From: Acaryochloris marina MBIC11017 | GTDB lineage: Bacteria > Cyanobacteriota > Cyanobacteriia > Thermosynechococcales > Thermosynechococcaceae | Assembly (NCBI RefSeq): GCF_000018105.1 | Contig: NC_009925.1 | Span: 540,001-572,000, forward strand | Direction: 5' to 3' | Length of the DNA: 32,000 nt | In this document: positions 274 to 18,172 of the stretch, one piece after another | Numbering within the stretch: position 1 is the first letter of the stretch | Layout: every line of letters starts with the position of its first letter | The notes under the pieces: generated by a model | Databases searched by the model: none | What the model was told of the DNA's origin: nothing | The model's input: only the letters and a program-made list of their open reading frames with translations | Position numbers and translations under genes: made by a program

Positions 274-1254
274 TTAGTCATAACACCAGGTATCAAAGGA
301 TCGGTTGGGTGGTGCCTGATTTGAACGCACAGGCCGATGGAAGATGGATTTGGTATTCGTTGACTTCTTGCGAGTGGCTAATGCTGAGGACTTTTGCGTT
401 TTTCTAGGAGTTGCAATGGTTTGCTGCTCAGTCAATTCTTTTTGTAACCGGGCATTCTCTTTTGCTAATCGCACTGCATCCTGGGTGGTTTGCTCCAGTT
501 TCCCCTTAATCGCATCGATTTGATTGTTTGATTTCTGCAATGCAGTCAGGGCTGTTTTTTGTTCCGCTAACTGTGCCTCTAATTGAGCCACTTTCTTCTG
601 TAAAGAGGTCTCTTTGGTTTGAGCTGCCTTTAAATCTTTGGTTAGGGCACTCACCTTCACTTCTAAATCAGCGTTGATGGATTGAGTGCTGGCAGTAGGG
701 CTGTTTGTTGAGGCAGTTTTTGCTGCTGCTTTCTTCGCAGTAGAGGTGGCAGGTTTAGCTTTCTTTGCGGTTGATGGGGGCTTTGCAGCTGTTTTCCGAC
801 TAGAGGAGCGGCTAGACGTTGCCTTTTTGGCAGGAGAAGATTTTGCGGTTGATTTTTTAGCAGCGGGCGCAGCAGTTTTGGTCTTGGCAGCTGACTTCTT
901 CGCTGCGGTTGTAGTAGCCTTTGTTGTCGAAGCTGACTTCTTCGCTGCCGGTGCCGCAGTCTTAGTCGTCGAAGCTGAATTAGCCGTTGATTTTTTGGCT
1001 GTAGCCTTAGCAGCGGGTGCAGCAGTTTTAGTCGTCCCGGTCGTCTTCTTTGCCGTAGTTTTTTTCGCAGTTGATTTTGCCGTGCTTTTTTTGGCTGTCG
1101 TCGTCTTTTTAGCCGTAGTTTTTTTAGCTGTTGTGGCTTTCTTTTGGGCCGACGACGCAGCTGGTTTAGCACCTACATCCTCTTTTTGATCAGGGGCTGC
1201 AGTTTTAGTTGCTTCTTCCCGTAATAAATCTGACAAACTCTTCTTCGTAGCCAT
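274..1254 (-). CDS. Lys/Ala/Thr/Ser-rich disordered protein (histone-H1/AlgP-like) with a coiled coil; ParA partner and McdB-like candidate.
   Basis: The ATG at 1254-1252 overlaps the ParA stop (TAATG), and the track's TTG at 1266 is an alternative start. The N-terminus is [14 protein letters not shown]. About 160 residues follow of AKKTT / TKTAAPAAK-type repeats, then a heptad-like segment (LEVKVSALTKDLKAAQTKETSLQKKVAQLEAQLAEQKTALTALQ...RLAKENARLQKEL) and a basic tail ending DTWCYD, with Trp fourth from the end. I see no HTH or ParB motif. Confidence 0.8.
   Translation of the reverse strand: MATKKSLSDLLREEATKTAAPDQKEDVGAKPAASSAQKKATTAKKTTAKKTTTAKKSTAKSTAKKTTAKKTTGTTKTAAPAAKATAKKSTANSASTTKTAAPAAKKSASTTKATTTAAKKSAAKTKTAAPAAKKSTAKSSPAKKATSSRSSSRKTAAKPPSTAKKAKPATSTAKKAAAKTASTNSPTASTQSINADLEVKVSALTKDLKAAQTKETSLQKKVAQLEAQLAEQKTALTALQKSNNQIDAIKGKLEQTTQDAVRLAKENARLQKELTEQQTIATPRKTQKSSALATRKKSTNTKSIFHRPVRSNQAPPNRSFDTWCYD
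840..1140. repeat. Imperfect in-frame tandem repeats inside the KAT-rich CDS.
   Basis: agcagcggg(c/t)gcagcagtttt(g/a)gtc occurs at 859-883 and 1009-1033, with a related copy at 944-967. gctgacttcttcgctgc occurs at 891-907 and 933-949. gccgtagttttttt occurs near 1052 and 1112. Confidence 0.75.
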
Positions 1255-1964
1255 TAACTTTCCCAATCCCGCTTAATTTCATCAACAACGCGGCAATAAT
1301 CTGCTTTTGCCTCTTTACTATATTTCCCTTTCCATTGTGTAATTGGCTGTCCTTCTAAAGCTGCCCGTTCATGGGCCTTATAGCTCCGTACAAAGGCATG
1401 AAAAGCCGGAATGCCTAACTCCATCAATGTGTTTTGAGCATCTAATGCTTCTCGCAAACTTCGAGGGTCGACCCGTGTTAGTAATACCCGATGAGCCACA
1501 CCGGATGGTTTGACCAATGTCCGCACCGTTTCAATGAGAACAGCTATTTCCATTGGGGCAGGCGGCGTAGGAAGCACTAAATAGTCAACCACAGGAATGA
1601 CCATTTTCAAAATCTCAGATTCCAGTCCTGGTGGTGTATCGACGACCACGAGCTCTTGTTTACTGGATCGGCGCAGTGCTTTCAATTCTTTGGCGCTAGT
1701 TCCAGACTGGACTTGAAATTTCAGAGAATTGTTATCACGCTGGGTCCACCAGGTAGCGGATCCTTGTGGATCAGCATCAATCAGGAGAACTTGATGAGCT
1801 TCTGCAAATACGGCTGTGAGATTGACAGCTGTGGTGGTTTTACCGACACCACCTTTGCCATTAAGGACTGCTACAACCTTAGTTTTTGAAGATTTAGAAG
1901 GCAACTTGGGCACCACTAATGATTGCCAATGGTAAGCAGGAGGCTCCGATTTTGCAACTTGCAA
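1254..1964 (-). CDS. ParA/MinD-superfamily partition-type ATPase (small ParA, McdA-like candidate).
   Basis: Deviant Walker [11 protein letters not shown] with the signature Lys, [10 protein letters not shown] (A' motif) and VVVDTPPG (Walker B). The protein is about 236 aa. The start is TTG at 1964, so the exact start is uncertain. Confidence 0.9.
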
Positions 1965-2070: not shown

Positions 2071-2086
2071 ATAGACAATTATCTAT
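2071..2086. promoter_or_regulatory. Candidate LysR-type binding box (imperfect dyad ATAGAcaattaTCTAT).
   Basis: The 5-bp arms ATAGA/TCTAT flank an A/T core. The box lies 57 bp upstream of the LysR ATG, in the 178-bp divergent region shared with ParA. Confidence 0.3.
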
Positions 2087-2142: not shown

Positions 2143-3057
2143 ATGCAGCCTACTCTACATCAACTGAAAGTGTTTGAAACTGCTGCCCGCCACGGCAGCT
2201 TCACCCGCGCCGCTGAAGAACTCTATCTTACCCAACCTACCGTTTCGATTCAGATTAAGCAGCTCTCCAAAACCGTTGGCTTCCCCTTATTCGAGAAGTT
2301 GGGAAAACAGCTCTACTTAACAGAAGTGGGCAATCGGTTATTTACCACCTGCCAATCTATCTTTGAAGAATTAGATCAATTCGAGATGATTGTCAGTGAT
2401 TTGCAAGGAATGACCCAGGGGAAGTTACATCTTGCTACTGTCACCACCTGCAAGTATTTTGTCCCCCGCTTGTTGGGTAACTTTTGTGATCAATATCCCG
2501 GCATTGATATTTCTTTAAAAATTACCAACCATCTCCAGCTGGAAAAGCGGATGATGGAAAACCGAGATGATCTGTACATCCTCAGTCATCCACCCCAACA
2601 TATTGATCTCAAAGTGCAGCCCGTCATTAAAAATCCACTTGTGGTGGTTGCCCCCCCTTCCCATCCCCTCGTGGGTCAAAAGAATATTGATATTTCTGCC
2701 CTTAACAATCAGCGCTTTATTATGCGGGAGCCAGGCTCGGGAACCCGCCACGCCGTTCAGGCCCTCTTCAACAAACATAAAGTCAATGTTGAAATCAAAC
2801 TAGAACTCGGAAGTAATGAGGCGATCAAACAGGCGATTGCAGGGGGACTTGGAATCTCAGTTTTATCGCGCCATTCCCTAAATGGTCGAGAATATACCGA
2901 CCTCGCCATACTAGATGTCGAGCATTTTCCCATTGAGCAGCAATGGTCCGTGGCCTATTTATCCGGTAAACATCTCTCTGTTGTGGCTGAAACCTTTCTG
3001 CATTACCTCGTCTCGGTTACGGATCATGCTGAGATGCCTTGGATGCATTTCAAATAG
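2143..3057 (+). CDS. LysR-family transcriptional regulator, CbbR/RbcR-like.
   Basis: N-terminal wHTH LHQLKVFETAARHGSFTRAAEELYLTQPTVSIQIKQLSKTVGFPLFEK followed by a C-terminal LysR substrate-binding domain. The N-terminus resembles CbbR/RbcR regulators of Calvin-cycle and CCM genes as I remember them. Confidence 0.9.
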   Translation: MQPTLHQLKVFETAARHGSFTRAAEELYLTQPTVSIQIKQLSKTVGFPLFEKLGKQLYLTEVGNRLFTTCQSIFEELDQFEMIVSDLQGMTQGKLHLATVTTCKYFVPRLLGNFCDQYPGIDISLKITNHLQLEKRMMENRDDLYILSHPPQHIDLKVQPVIKNPLVVVAPPSHPLVGQKNIDISALNNQRFIMREPGSGTRHAVQALFNKHKVNVEIKLELGSNEAIKQAIAGGLGISVLSRHSLNGREYTDLAILDVEHFPIEQQWSVAYLSGKHLSVVAETFLHYLVSVTDHAEMPWMHFK

Positions 3058-3928: not shown

Positions 3929-4660
3929 ATGGAATTGAGTGGTTATTAACGAGAGCTGAAATAAATCGAGAATAATATTCTCTTGAAACTTAAATATCAA
4001 ATTTTTCACTTGTTTTTAACGTCTTTTTAAGGCATTGCTAACAAAGCATTAATCTGGGTGATGCCTCTGAGAACTCCAAGCTTACTGATGTGCATATGTT
4101 TGAAATAAAAACTACAAGCACTTTCAGTATTCACAGTAGATGCCTGGATGGACATTTAGGCGCTACTGTCTCAGCCATCTATTTTAGATAGCTAAAACTC
4201 AATTTAAGAGACTTTTACAAGCTGAGAATATTTCTGTTGATTTAACTCTGCTTTTAGCTCGTTAATCTTAAATCAATATGAATTAAATAATTTAATCTGA
4301 GGGTGATAATTCTCAAGATTTTTGGTGATGTAAATCATTGAATTATTTTTCTGCATTTGAGGTATTTTTATATGCAAAAATAATATCATCTAATTTATTT
4401 TTAGTATTTTAAATTTTATAAAATAAAAATATAGATAATCCTAGGCATTGCTCTAAGTCGGTTAAAGTCAGAGGCTTAGTGACATAGAGCTTCTTTAGGA
4501 ATCATTACTTTTGAAAAGTGAAATATTGAAGGCAATGGCCATTAGTACAGGTAAAAATAATGCATAATCCAGCTTTAGATAAGGGTTTCTGCATCACTTA
4601 AAATCCCTGATCCTCTGATTTAAAGATAGATGCCAATCTATTGCAGAGATTCAAACCACG
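3929..4660. other. Extremely AT-rich non-coding island between divergent genes.
   Basis: No ORF of 60 aa or more on either strand. By hand count, row 4381-4440 has 5 G/C in 60 nt and rows 3961, 4261 and 4321 have 13-14 in 60, whereas the neighbouring coding row 4741-4800 has about 27 in 60. Confidence 0.8.
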
Positions 4661-6322
4661 TTGACCACTGTCCCCAAATCCGCATACAGTTTTGAACAGA
4701 ATCATCCAGGGGCTAAACGAGCCATGCAAACCATTGCTGCTATTGATGTGGGAACCAATTCAATCCACATGGTCGTGGTGAAAGTTAACCCTGAAATTCC
4801 AGCATTTAATATTATTGATACCGAAAAAAGTACCGTTCGCTTAGGGGAAGGAAGCAAAGATACTGGGAAGCTGCATCCCGATGCGATCGCAAGAGCAATT
4901 GCCGCCCTTCGTCGCTGCCAAGAAGTGGCCGCAGCCTGTAAAGTCGAGCAAATTCAGGCGGTTGCCACCAGTGCTGTCCGGGAAGCCCTCAATGGTCGGA
5001 CCTTTATTCGCGCCGTTGAATCTGAACTCGGCCTCAAAATCAATGTCATCTCAGGTCCGGAAGAAGCTCGTCGAATTTATCTTGGGGTTTTATCGGGCAT
5101 CGAATTTAATAAAAAACCCCACGTCATTGTTGATATTGGGGGCGGATCAACCGAGCTTATTTTAGGGGATGGCCAAGATCCTCGCTCCCTTAGTAGTACC
5201 AAAGTAGGTGCGGTTCGGCTAACCGAGGAATATATCACCACCGATCCGGTCAGTACCCGTGAATTTGAACGATTACAGGCTTACGTCAGAGGGATGTTGG
5301 AATGGCCTGTTGAAGAGTTGCGTTCCCATCTTTCCCCTGGTGAGATTCCAACCCTTATTGGGACTTCCGGCACAATTGAAAGTATTCTCAAACTCCATGC
5401 CTGCGAAGTGATGGGAGCCTGCCCCACCTCACTTCATGGCCATGTCCTCACCCTGGATGACCTAAACGAACTGATTCGCAAGTTACGCAAGCTCAATTAC
5501 GAAGAGCGCTGCAAAATGCCTGGCATGACCGAGCGGCGCGCAGAAATTATTTTAGCCGGAGCCGTGATTTTGGCTGAAACAATGACCCTGCTGAAATTAG
5601 ACTCCATTACCACCTGTGAACGAGCCCTACGGGAAGGCATTGTGGTGGACTGGATGATGAAGCAAGGCTTAATCGAAGATCGTCTCCGCTACCAGGGGTC
5701 CGTGCGAGAGCGTAGCGTTATGAATTTGGCCCATCAGTACCATGTGGAACTGGCGACAGCTGAACGAATCGCTGATTTCGCTGTTGCTTTATTTGATCAG
5801 ACCCACGGTGCACTCCATGATTGGGGGATAGACGAACGCCATTCACTGTGGGCAGCCGCTATTTTGCATAATTGTGGGCATTACATCAGCCATTCCGCCC
5901 ACCATAAGCATTCCTATTACTTAATTCGCCATGGTGGTTTGTTGGGCTATACGGATGCCGAAGTAGAAATTATTGCTAACCTAGCTCGGTATCACCGCAA
6001 AGGCCCCCCCAAGAAAAAGCATGAGAATTATCAGAACCTAGTGAATAAAACCCAACGTCGGATAGTCGATCAGCTCAGCGCTATCCTGAAGTTAGCGGTC
6101 GCATTAGATCGACGACAAATCGGTGCCATTGAATCCCTACATTGTGAAATGGAAGAAGATACCATCACCCTCCATCTTCAAGCCAGTCAAGCCGACGATG
6201 ACTGTGCTTTAGAACTATGGAGCTTAGATATGAAAAAGGCTTGTTTTGAAGCCGAATTTGATGTCACCTTGGTCGCTCAACTTGCTGAATCTGCTCCTAG
6301 CCCCGATTTGCAGCCAGCCTGA
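4661..6322 (+). CDS. ppx: Ppx/GppA-family exopolyphosphatase with a C-terminal HD domain.
   Basis: AAIDVGTNSIHMVV and DIGGGSTEL (ASKHA phosphate motifs), and the HD region HNCGHYISHSAHHKHSYYLI. The track start is TTG at 4661; the in-frame ATG at 4724 (MQTIAAIDVG) is an equally plausible start. Confidence 0.9.
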   Translation: MTTVPKSAYSFEQNHPGAKRAMQTIAAIDVGTNSIHMVVVKVNPEIPAFNIIDTEKSTVRLGEGSKDTGKLHPDAIARAIAALRRCQEVAAACKVEQIQAVATSAVREALNGRTFIRAVESELGLKINVISGPEEARRIYLGVLSGIEFNKKPHVIVDIGGGSTELILGDGQDPRSLSSTKVGAVRLTEEYITTDPVSTREFERLQAYVRGMLEWPVEELRSHLSPGEIPTLIGTSGTIESILKLHACEVMGACPTSLHGHVLTLDDLNELIRKLRKLNYEERCKMPGMTERRAEIILAGAVILAETMTLLKLDSITTCERALREGIVVDWMMKQGLIEDRLRYQGSVRERSVMNLAHQYHVELATAERIADFAVALFDQTHGALHDWGIDERHSLWAAAILHNCGHYISHSAHHKHSYYLIRHGGLLGYTDAEVEIIANLARYHRKGPPKKKHENYQNLVNKTQRRIVDQLSAILKLAVALDRRQIGAIESLHCEMEEDTITLHLQASQADDDCALELWSLDMKKACFEAEFDVTLVAQLAESAPSPDLQPA

Positions 6323-17342: not shown

Positions 17343-18172
17343 TCAACAAAGTGTGGGATAAGAAGTTAAGTCTCGCCATTGCCAAGGATGCTCCGTCAGC
17401 CCAGCTCGTTGGGCAGCCGTATTCTTGAATCGAGAGTGGTGCCAGATCCAGTTGAAATAAGCCAACACCAGTCTTAACGTTACTGCACTCTGTTGCCAGA
17501 CTTTGCCAAATTTATTCTGTCGTCGATGCCAGCGACTGGTCTGTTGACGTAGTATGCCATTGGTCCGCTCTAACCGTTGGGTCAGGGCTTTACTCACGTG
17601 ATGGATCACCTCATTGGCTAATTGTCTTGAATACCCTTCCCAGCCATCAGTTTGCCAATGGTGACAGGCAGTTTTGCCTTCAGTATTCTCAATTAATTCT
17701 TGAGCGAGTTCGTCGGTATGTTTGCCAATACGGCCACTGAGGACCAAGCCACTGTCTTTGGCTAGGCTTAATGCCACCCAGCAGTCCCCTACGTTCAATT
17801 CTTCTGGTTCACAGTGCTTTTGCTTTTTTTGACAAAGGACCACAACTCATCTGCATTGATGACGTTAGTCGAAACAGCGTGAACGTCTTGATTGTGAATC
17901 ATTTGGGCTTTATGGCTCGCTGAACGAATCACACTCACACAGGTGTTGTAAGCTACACCTGTGATGCGGGATAAGCCTCTGAGGCTACTGCCTTCAGCAT
18001 GAGATTGAAGGATGGTCTGGATGGTTTCAGAAGAGATCTGACGGCGATAATGAAGGGTATCAAAGGTCTCACTGAAGGTTTGGTGACAGTGGGGGCAACG
18101 GTAACGTTGGCTGCCTTTACTGGTTTTACCGTGTTTGTGGGTCTTTGGATGACCACATAAAGGACATTGCAT
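17343..18172 (-). CDS. IS1-family transposase (InsA-InsB fusion made by a programmed -1 frameshift).
   Basis: ORF1 (17795-18172) has a zinc finger CPLCG...CPHC and an HTH region. ORF2 (17343-17843) is in the -1 frame. Slipping on the A7 run gives ...DELWSFVKKKQKHCEPEELNVGDCWVAL..., which is continuous with the DDE region. Confidence 0.85.
17824..17830 (-). promoter_or_regulatory. A7 slippery heptamer (T7 on the + strand) for the -1 ribosomal frameshift.
   Basis: The minus strand reads GTC AAA AAA AGC. The two ORFs overlap at 17795-17843. Confidence 0.7.

Follow-up and report, generated by a model that had tools for sequence, protein, structure and literature searches.

A probable Type 2 McdAB carboxysome-positioning pair of Acaryochloris marina with an extremely long and positively charged disordered region in its adaptor

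Cyanobacteria space their CO2-fixing carboxysomes with two proteins, McdA and McdB, and the McdAB family is already so well described that one more pair by itself adds little. Type 2 McdA proteins are characterized by a length of 202-253 aa, a signature lysine (KGGxxGKT), two further threonines, and a double tryptophan by the Walker A' motif, followed by a short insertion and then conserved Phe, Glu, and Pro (PMC7182216). Type 2 McdB proteins are encoded by the ORF directly after mcdA, are 132-394 aa long, and contain a charged N-terminus in which positive residues precede negative ones, a central coiled coil with Gln-rich stretches, and a Trp among the four C-terminal residues, the whole protein being polar and largely disordered (PMC7182216). 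Functionally, Type 2 McdA is expected to bind the nucleoid non-specifically with ATP and to leave carboxysomes mispositioned when deleted, and Type 2 McdB to bind shell proteins, stimulate McdA, and form condensates. The published catalogue also contains pairs unlinked to carboxysome genes (PMC7182216). McdB of S. elongatus does not bind DNA (PMC7182216), and the net charge of its N-terminal disordered region (IDR) tunes the solubility of its condensates, where a difference of a few charges is decisive (PMC10554743).

In this work, we describe a two-gene operon located in a 32,000-nt stretch of the Acaryochloris marina MBIC11017 chromosome (NC_009925.1, positions 540,001 to 572,000), called here the window, whose numbering is used throughout (Table 1). 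In our judgment, the operon very probably encodes the Type 2 McdAB carboxysome-positioning pair of this species, and we regard it as a further member of the known family that stands out by its extreme disordered region. The original prediction offered two readings, namely a type-2 McdAB pair whose adaptor has acquired a very long basic repeat domain, or a distinct ParA-driven system. The former is supported by the published criteria, by orthologous pairs, by cases within carboxysome loci, and by the lineage-specific expansion of the repeat domain, while the latter is unsupported; neither ParB/RHH similarity nor parS-like repeats were found.

Table 1. Features of the mcdAB locus and its divergent neighbour, in window coordinates.
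Feature	Position	Strand	Details
mcdB (probable Type 2 McdB adaptor)	274..1254	-	continuous ORF, 326 aa, net charge +50, pI 10.6; stop codon 274-276
Basic disordered McdB tail, aa 282-326	277..411	-	~45-49 aa, net +8; SIFHRPV, terminal SFDTWCYD
Long single helix, predicted coiled coil, McdB aa 186-281	412..699	-	AlphaFold2, 96 residues, pLDDT 93-98
Spurious antisense ORF	686..1189	+	167 aa, A/V/F-rich; called as a gene in the MBIC10699 record (L090 2466..2969)
Polycationic disordered region (IDR), McdB aa 18-187	694..1203	-	170 aa, net +39, 93% K/A/T/S/P
McdB N-terminal peptide, aa 1-17	1204..1254	-	motif M.KK.LSDLL.EE..K, conserved in cyanobacterial downstream ORFs
TAATG stop/start overlap, mcdA-mcdB	1252..1256	-	mcdA TAA 1254-1256, mcdB ATG 1252-1254; translational coupling
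mcdA (probable Type 2 McdA, ParA-family ATPase)	1254..1964	-	236 aa from TTG at 1964; AGGAG 4 nt upstream
Double Trp, SATWW, adjoining Walker A'	1746..1751	-	read from sequence; W72, W73 invariant in alignment A1
Deviant Walker A KGGVGKTTT (signature Lys and two extra Thr)	1830..1856	-	read from sequence; invariant in alignment A1
ATAGACAATTATCTAT, exact NdhR/CcmR consensus box ATAG-N8-CTAT	2071..2086	.	ccmR-mcdA intergenic region
LysR-type regulator, NdhR/CcmR orthologue, divergent	2143..3057	+	Pfam HTH_1 and LysR_substrate; PDB 5Y2V, E 8.8e-127, residues 1-300

Every testable published sequence feature of Type 2 McdA and McdB (PMC7182216) was found in the pair. The deviant Walker A motif (KGGVGKT) of the small ParA is intact, as originally read. 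Depending on whether translation starts at the TTG at 1964 or at an alternative TTG at 1904, the latter giving the length called by RefSeq in relatives, McdA comprises 236 or 216 aa, both inside the Type 2 range of 202-253. F83 is also invariant in A1; the consensus ET.P reads SGTSA in the Acaryochloris clade, where the Glu and Pro reported after the double Trp are apparently replaced by Gly and Ala. Its identity is 51-97% with cyanobacterial ParAs that lie ahead of McdB-like ORFs and does not exceed 41% with non-cyanobacterial matches, and its exact sequence is deposited for A. marina MBIC10699 as BDM80483.1. Among profile matches were Pfam CbiA/AAA_31 and, as the top NCBIfam model, ParA_partition, which remained below its cut-off (112 bits vs 180), while the best PDB matches were ParA and ParF. 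PDB 3CWQ, a ParA-family chromosome partitioning protein, matched at E 3e-26 only and is thus no close relative. Assignment to Type 1 was rejected: the signature Lys is present, there is no extension, and a tail of ~45-49 aa follows the McdB helix.

The overlap between the mcdA stop codon and the mcdB start codon, noticed at the outset, was confirmed with both genes on the minus strand, and the same 1-nt overlap occurs in the related loci L081, L082, L084, L086, and L088. McdB falls inside the published 132-394 aa range and consists of 71% K/A/T/S/P. At its N-terminus, KK stands ahead of D/E, and a short helix is predicted at residues 7-17 (AlphaFold2, single sequence); by analogy with other adaptors (PMC12139897, PMC11321042), residues 1-17 would be the peptide that binds McdA and stimulates its ATPase activity. 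The K/A/T/S/P segment that follows was estimated earlier at about 160 residues and spans 170. It is composed of 28% A, 24% K, 22% T, 13% S, and 6% P, contains three TKTAAPAAK and four TAKKTT units, and is a composition run that cannot have originated by chance. At the DNA level, its repeats are imperfect, with spacings that are multiples of 3, and Tandem Repeats Finder returned one 42-bp array only (2.1 copies), so the repetition in the IDR is compositional and degenerate, with no clean tandem array behind it.

Structure prediction agreed with the expected combination of disorder and coiled coil, as pLDDT was below 50 over most of residues 19-180 (AlphaFold2, single sequence) and high along the helix, which at 96 residues is longer than the approximately 80 proposed originally. 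This helix is Gln-containing (13%, 12 Gln in 90 residues), carries the conserved block DAxxLAxENxRLQ (alignment A2), has L/I/V/M/A at 57% of heptad a/d positions in the best register, and gave weak matches to coiled-coil families in profile searches. The basic tail ending in DTWCYD was found as described. Its Trp323 (codon 286-288) is fourth from the C-terminal end, and the W, C, and D of this terminus are invariant in A2; given the role reported for Trp elsewhere (PMC11321042), SFDTWCYD is a candidate carboxysome-shell binding motif. Profile searches against Pfam, NCBIfam, and PDB detected no HTH, ParB, or RHH domain in McdB, consistent with the reported lack of HTH, ParB, and CopG-like features.

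By analogy with described McdAB systems, ATP-bound McdA dimers would coat the nucleoid, whereas McdB would oligomerise via its coiled-coil helix and bind the beta-carboxysome shell via the C-terminal Trp-acidic motif. Contact between the N-terminal McdB peptide and McdA would stimulate ATP hydrolysis, and local McdA depletion would make carboxysomes travel towards higher McdA along its gradient and become evenly spaced, as in a Brownian ratchet. Specific to this locus is the size of the disordered linker that joins the putative McdA-binding peptide to the coiled coil, which has grown by in-frame repeats to 170 residues with a net charge of +39.

McdB orthologues were gathered from the neighbourhoods of McdA homologues and by an exhaustive HMMER scan. 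A word-indexed search with the full protein returned only an unrelated K/A/T-rich protein and was uninformative, its candidate list being swamped by low-complexity sequence; repeated with the C-terminal 141 aa, it yielded three truncated Acaryochloris annotations only. All ORFs recovered downstream of cyanobacterial McdA orthologues carry the motif M.KK.LSDLL.EE. In 27 of the 29 ORFs recovered (from 33 loci), the C-terminus contains W..D; one ends in SWLL, and a truncated Gloeobacteraceae ORF has the N-terminal motif only. Both terminal motifs recur in profile-free HMMER matches. Loss of the C-terminal Trp and coiled coil in orthologues had been named as evidence that would speak against the assignment, and both Trp and helix are kept.

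The comparison of synteny and repeat length in related cyanobacteria, suggested together with the original prediction, likewise favours McdAB: one orthologous pair lies in an rbc/ccm locus and nine lie by ccmK, and the expansion is restricted to one lineage. The L088 pair (McdA 75% identical; McdB ending in SFDTWCYD) is located between rbcLXS/ccmK/ccmP and ccmO-N-M-L-K, and nine Nostocales pairs have a ccmK pair (ccmK paralogues) 2-4 kb downstream. The family also includes a Gloeobacteraceae locus with 59% identity. Within the 32-kb window of A. marina, no shell or Rubisco genes were found, and the only carbon-related neighbour is ccmR/ndhR.

This divergent neighbour had been described as CbbR/RbcR-like. 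It is a real LysR-type gene, yet an orthologue of NdhR/CcmR and not RbcR proper, its match 5Y2V (E 9e-127) being NdhR/CcmR of Synechocystis, which represses the CO2-concentrating mechanism. The adjacency of ccmR/ndhR and mcdA is kept in the Acaryochloris clade. The consensus ATAG-N8-CTAT, quoted for NdhR/CcmR in PMC13249358, occurs twice in the 32 kb (0.32 matches expected), and the intergenic box is conserved in 8/8 Acaryochloris-clade loci. Because mcdAB is divergent from ccmR/ndhR and shares with it a promoter region containing a conserved CcmR box, its expression may respond to inorganic carbon supply. The conserved box also suggests that, in the Acaryochloris lineage, genes for carboxysome positioning may be part of the inorganic-carbon regulon.

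The feature that distinguishes this pair is the size and charge of its adaptor. With 326 aa and a net charge of +50, McdB compares with 225±32 aa and −4±10 in 38 other McdBs, a charge more than 5 SD above them, and within the clade the charge rises stepwise and in one direction (+2, +16, +36, +44, +50). The sequence comparison indicates that the expansion is real and lineage-specific, and no natural variant among the sampled McdBs is as extreme in IDR length and charge. Since the S. elongatus adaptor lacks DNA binding, an IDR of +39 is unprecedented among the studied members of the family and might alter the working of the system. By analogy with the S. elongatus protein, the IDR would most likely be a spacer tuned by its charge that also modulates how condensates form and how soluble they are, and it may add electrostatic affinity for polyanions (DNA, RNA, or polyphosphate). 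The natural series from +2 to +50 in close relatives is a ready test set for the link between IDR charge and condensates, and it also lets a polycationic adaptor be tested in a nucleoid-based ratchet.

The same data could be read as descent from McdAB with an altered working, in which the polycationic segment binds the nucleoid or polyphosphate granules directly, so that McdB tethers carboxysomes to a polyanionic matrix or positions polyphosphate granules, beyond its role as a cargo adaptor. The exceptional charge and its steady increase fit such a change, and a dN/dS of 0.23 (vs L081) indicates that the segment is maintained. However, the flanking elements are conserved under strong constraint (dN/dS of 0 in the N-terminal peptide, 0.09 in the coiled coil, and 0.05 in the tail), from which we conclude that the canonical adaptor role is retained, and the IDR is rich in T and S (35%). 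Tails of H1 or AlgP contain more K and P. The gene ppx lies three genes from mcdAB with a second CcmR box, at 4626-4641, just upstream, but this synteny is found in the closest relatives only. Carboxysomes of S. elongatus associate with polyphosphate, although independently of McdAB, and AlgP affects how polyphosphate granules are spaced in Pseudomonas (PMC9239181). Taken together, we consider a changed function very unlikely. Somewhat better placed, yet still unlikely, is the proposal that the H1/AlgP-like domain of 170 residues (+39) provides direct affinity for the nucleoid or polyphosphate while the operon, and perhaps ppx, is under CcmR control. If true, McdB would be both cargo adaptor and matrix binder, altering how the ratchet works, and CcmR control would connect the positioning of carboxysomes with polyphosphate and with the sensing of inorganic carbon.

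We read mcdB as one translated frame, which is not how public records present it. GenBank entries for MBIC11017 (AM1_0553) and MBIC10699 split the gene into a 126-aa fragment, with a GTG start at 'VSALTKDL', and an antisense ORF, and a collection of 15 billion proteins does not contain the 326-aa sequence in full. If these annotations were correct, there would be a 126-aa protein and a separate antisense gene, and the K/A/T-rich stretch would not be translated as part of an adaptor. The sense frame and the annotated antisense frame share wobble positions, so codon-position analysis cannot separate them and the coding call rests on motif conservation and ORF continuity. Both argue against the split: the mcdB ATG overlaps the mcdA stop, the 17 N-terminal residues fit the motif that McdBs share across cyanobacteria and, compared with L081 and L082, are free of non-synonymous changes (dN 0), and the mcdB frame is the only one open across the full length in all relatives, where gene callers yield full-length products of 266-319 aa. 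One 126-aa call is truncated by a contig end. The open length of the antisense ORF is not conserved and decreases together with the repeat in relatives (167, 158, 113, 45, 55); this 167-aa ORF, like an alternative sense-frame ORF of 169 aa, was rejected as a real gene because its length tracks that of the repeat, and we treat it as a spurious by-product of K/A/T codon composition. The public annotation is therefore extremely unlikely to be right, and mcdB is annotated wrongly in the reference Acaryochloris genomes. Assemblies from short reads are also interrupted within the gene. Through mis-annotation and assembly breaks, catalogues based on annotation will miss or truncate mcdB.

A DNA-partition system of the chromosome or a mobile element, with the lysine-rich partner as a new kind of centromere-binding protein, would agree with the ParA_partition, ParA, and ParF matches and with a basic segment that could putatively bind DNA, but it hardly deserves consideration, given orthologous pairs within carboxysome loci, a setting of chromosomal housekeeping genes (dxr, lpxA/B, ppx) on a 6.4-Mb chromosome, and a partner for which a ParB/RHH-type adaptor was rejected, as profile searches gave no such domain and the repeat scan no parS-like direct or inverted arrays around the operon outside the coding low-complexity region, the two findings that had been named in advance as pointing to partition.

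Compared with ParABS and ParFG systems, the Type 2 McdAB pair of A. marina shares a ParA with deviant Walker A motif, a two-gene operon, and probably a basic N-terminal peptide of the partner that stimulates the ATPase. It differs in that the partner has no ParB, HTH, or RHH domain and no centromere repeat, and the cargo would be a protein organelle. The partner was originally called histone-H1-like, which holds for composition only. Like AlgP of Pseudomonas aeruginosa and histone H1 tails, the IDR has long, K/A-rich, low-complexity repeats with Pro and a very high pI, with AAPAAKK and AKKTT as the resembling units, but no homology to AlgP/H1 was detected, Thr and Ser outweigh Pro (35% vs only 6%), and the segment is embedded between conserved McdB motifs.

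The alpha-McdAB system of Halothiobacillus neapolitanus is alike at both ends of the adaptor, as McdA binding lies in the first ~20 residues, which include key lysines (PMC12139897), and carboxysome binding in a C-terminal Trp motif (PMC11321042). Alpha-McdBs, however, are 51-169 aa long, monomeric, end in R(V/I)WPD, and serve alpha-carboxysomes. Type 1 McdAB of S. elongatus PCC 7942 shares the predicted logic of a nucleoid-bound ParA-type ATPase with a disordered, coiled-coil, Trp-terminal adaptor, in which the charge of the N-terminal IDR controls self-association (PMC10554743). Nevertheless, no sequence similarity between the two pairs was detectable; in Type 1 McdA, the signature Lys is replaced by Ser and the middle of the protein contains an insertion, and in Type 1 McdB the coiled coil is C-terminal, the N-terminal charge order is reversed, and the IDR carries a net charge of only +3.

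The closest counterparts are Type 2 pairs (PMC7182216), such as those of Gloeobacter kilaueensis and Synechocystis PCC 6803. They share KGGVGKT with the two Thr and the double Trp, an mcdB directly after mcdA, an McdB N-terminal peptide with positive before negative residues, a Gln-containing coiled coil, disordered extensions, and a Trp in the last four residues, and orthologues of the A. marina pair lie in ccm loci or beside ccmK3/K4-like genes. In contrast, the A. marina locus adjoins ccmR/ndhR and not shell genes, and the Glu and Pro positions after the double Trp are apparently substituted in its clade. The N-terminal extension measures ~185 aa, against a published 60±23, which places the coiled coil in the C-terminal half instead of the centre, and the net charge stands far above the range of the 38 sampled McdBs.

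The features that the original prediction read from the sequence are present on the minus strand, where mcdA, the gene of a ParA ATPase, is followed by mcdB, which encodes an adaptor of 326 aa with a net charge of +50 and a pI of 10.6. McdB was divided into an N-terminal peptide, a disordered segment (IDR), a long helix, and a basic tail. The IDR has an AlphaFold2 pLDDT below 50 and contains the repeats TKTAAPAAK (three copies) and TAKKTT (four copies), and the 49 residues past the assigned coiled-coil segment (278-326) carry a net charge of +8. Searches of Pfam, NCBIfam, and PDB sequences returned weak coiled-coil matches alone and no HTH, ParB, or RHH domain, in agreement with the earlier description of the partner as lacking HTH and ParB features. 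No parS-like repeat arrays were found flanking the operon either, so that neither sign named in advance as speaking against a McdAB pair, ParB/RHH similarity or parS-like repeats, was detected; the repeats at mcdAB are imperfect, in frame, and confined to the coding low-complexity stretch.

Features of the mcdAB locus and its surroundings (window positions unless marked aa)
Feature	Position	Strand	Remarks
mcdB ORF	274..1254	minus	326 aa
McdB N-terminal peptide	aa 1-17		AlphaFold2 helix at 7-17
McdB disordered segment	aa 18-187		A 28%, K 24%, T 22%, S 13%, P 6%; net +39
McdB long helix	aa 186-281		AlphaFold2 pLDDT 93-98; 13% Gln
McdB basic tail	aa 282-326		disordered; ends SFDTWCYD
GTG-start fragment AM1_0553 / BDM80481.1	274-654	minus	126 aa; annotated in place of mcdB
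Second sense-frame ORF	663..1172	minus	169 aa; likewise a by-product of composition
Antisense ORF	686..1189	plus	167 aa; annotated in MBIC10699 and MBIC11017 records; spurious
TAATG	1252-1256	minus	mcdA TAA stop overlapping mcdB ATG
mcdA (ParA) ORF	1254..1964	minus	236 aa from TTG with AGGAG ahead
SATWW in McdA	1746-1751	minus	read from sequence
Walker A KGGVGKTTT in McdA	1830-1856	minus	read from sequence
CcmR box 1	2071-2086		between ccmR and mcdA; exact consensus
ccmR/ndhR orthologue, LysR-type	2143..3057	divergent from mcdA	PDB 5Y2V, E 8.8e-127 over 300 residues
ORF, 236 aa	3200-3910	minus	between ccmR and ppx
CcmR box 2, ATAGATGCCAATCTAT	4626-4641		just upstream of ppx; exact consensus
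ppx, exopolyphosphatase	4661..6322	plus	
Two adjoining ORFs	17343-18172	minus	166-aa one matches IS1 transposase DDE domain

Over its first 3 kb, the window is identical to the chromosome of A. marina MBIC10699 (AP026075.1), and neither the records of that strain nor those of MBIC11017 annotate mcdB as a single protein; the 326-aa sequence has no entry in a collection of 15 billion proteins. The annotated 126-aa fragment and antisense ORF were rejected as true genes on four lines of evidence. The 326-aa frame alone is open from end to end in all relatives, and the antisense frame shortens with repeat length (167, 158, 113, 45, 55 aa). The first 17 residues form a motif conserved across cyanobacteria. 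The dN/dS calculated against the nearest relative amounts to 0 in this N-terminal peptide, 0.23 in the IDR, 0.09 in the coiled coil, and 0.05 in the tail, and in relatives gene callers yield full-length proteins of 266-319 aa. Short-read contigs stop exactly at the repeat in four relatives' loci, of which L001, L083, and L085 finish right past mcdA and L089 begins within mcdB. Breaks within the K/A/T-rich repeat recur in short-read metagenome and genome assemblies, and many Acaryochloris assemblies consequently lack mcdB or contain it in truncated form.

The McdA protein matches BDM80483.1 exactly. Its start is ambiguous between the TTG at 1964, 4 nt downstream of AGGAG, and the TTG at 1904, which gives 216 aa, coincides with the start in RefSeq relatives, and agrees in length with other McdAs; the 20-aa extension is conserved in part within the clade. 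A conserved block in this start region (1904-1990), ACTCCTGGGA.GACTATAC.GCTTTATTG, could be either coding sequence or a promoter with a Shine-Dalgarno sequence.

Type 2 McdAs are defined by a length of 202-253 aa, the signature Lys of Walker A, two additional Thr, and a Trp pair next to Walker A' (PMC7182216). Type 2 McdB is encoded right after mcdA and is a polar, disordered protein of 132-394 aa, with a charged N-terminus in which positive residues precede negative ones, a coiled coil containing Gln-rich stretches, and Trp among the last four residues (PMC7182216). The pair shows all of these features that can be tested, except the Glu and Pro past WW, which look substituted in the Acaryochloris clade. 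Orthology rests not on motifs alone. McdA is 51-97% identical to cyanobacterial ParAs and at most 41% to anything else. All downstream ORFs recovered start with M.(K/R)(K/R).L(S/A/T)DLL.EE, and 27 of the 29 from 33 loci end in W..D (WLLD, GWVD, GWFD, WCYD), with SWLL in one. The C-terminal 141 aa of McdB, used as query in an exhaustive HMMER scan, gave 23 matches, 21 with Trp in the last four residues. In locus L088 (1-10651), from an uncultured relative, mcdAB lies between rbcLXS-ccmK-ccmK-ccmP and ccmO-N-M-L-K (McdA 75% identical, McdB ending SFDTWCYD), which may be the ancestral location, the Acaryochloris pair having later moved to ccmR. There, the rbcLXS side, with two ccmK genes and a CsoS1D/CcmP-like gene, is divergent, and ccmO-N-M-L-K is convergent. 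A ccmK pair lies 2-4 kb downstream of mcdAB in nine Nostocales loci, reproducing the published ccmK3/K4 association. The original prediction had weighed a Type 2 McdAB pair whose adaptor carries a long basic repeat domain against a distinct ParA-driven system; its first alternative is supported by both criteria and orthology. Judged by sequence, the pair belongs to the known Type 2 McdAB family as a new member that has been mis-annotated, and present evidence does not mark it as a system of a new kind.

The divergent neighbour, described in the original prediction as a CbbR/RbcR-like regulator, is LysR-type. UniProt names it RbcR; its match to 5Y2V, the NdhR/CcmR of Synechocystis, identifies it as an orthologue of this CCM repressor and not as RbcR proper. 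The NdhR box consensus ATAG-N8-CTAT (PMC13249358) occurs exactly twice in the window (0.32 expected), both times in promoter regions. Box 1 is the best-conserved intergenic block (8/8 clade loci) and is predicted to be at least a ccmR autoregulatory site; we infer that CcmR may control mcdAB. Conservation of box 2 is limited to the closest relatives: L081 and L083 have it ahead of ppx, and L001 lacks it. In the Acaryochloris lineage, ppx may be part of the CcmR regulon. Adjacency of ccmR and mcdAB is restricted to the Acaryochloris clade, and this placement is lineage-specific. The window contains none of the structural genes of carboxysomes; the genes around mcdAB are housekeeping ones (ppx, dxr, lpxA/B, peptidases, c-di-GMP enzymes). 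The 236-aa ORF beside ccmR has no Pfam or NCBIfam match and is syntenic (84-86% identical) in the closest Acaryochloris relatives only. The two adjoining ORFs resemble an IS1-family element, possibly frameshifted, amid housekeeping genes.

By extension from the family, McdA-ATP would bind the nucleoid, and the McdB N-terminal peptide would bind and stimulate McdA (by analogy, PMC12139897, PMC11321042). McdB would oligomerise via its coiled coil and bind the carboxysome shell through its Trp-acidic C-terminus, and a Brownian ratchet would move the carboxysomes. The best-supported role of the IDR, by analogy, would be that of a charge-dependent tuner of McdB self-association and solubility, plus a spacer: in S. 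elongatus McdB, a shift of the IDR from a net charge of +3 to -3 causes condensates to dissolve and modifies the association with carboxysomes (PMC10554743). The +39 IDR probably binds polyanions in vitro; S. elongatus McdB shows no DNA binding (PMC7182216). Three things point to a link with polyphosphate: the nearby ppx, the role of AlgP in polyphosphate-granule spacing (PMC9239181), and reported carboxysome-polyphosphate contacts in S. elongatus. This link is weak, given the shallow synteny of ppx and the fact that the S. elongatus contacts are independent of McdAB. The likeness of the IDR to H1/AlgP is compositional only, as Thr and Ser together make up 35% of it and Pro 6%.

Published Type 2 McdBs have an N-terminal extension of 60±23 aa, a coiled coil of 93±25, and a C-terminal extension of 56±16 (PMC7182216); in the window protein, coiled coil and tail are typical, whereas the N-terminal extension reaches about 185 aa. 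The 38 other full-length McdBs sampled measure 225±32 aa (maximum 303) and have a net charge of -4.3±9.6 (maximum +27), and the N-terminal IDR studied here is the most extreme polycationic one in the sample. The expansion is graded with relatedness, from L088 (McdA 75% identical; McdB 214 aa, net +2) through L086 (83%; 266 aa, +16), L084 (90%; 283 aa, +36), and L081/L082 (97%; 318/319 aa, +44) to the window protein, and alignment places all extra residues between the N-terminal peptide and the coiled coil. Two further WC(Y/F)D-type McdBs from the HMMER scan, P0129 (292 aa, net +27) and P0139 (255 aa, net +14), have expanded basic linkers rich in A/T/K/R, which suggests that such linkers grew repeatedly within this subfamily. 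Repetitive, biased McdB extensions have already been noted, and in about 13% of Type 2 McdBs the two extensions are both positive (PMC7182216); the graded series and these linkers place the Acaryochloris protein at the end of a continuum.
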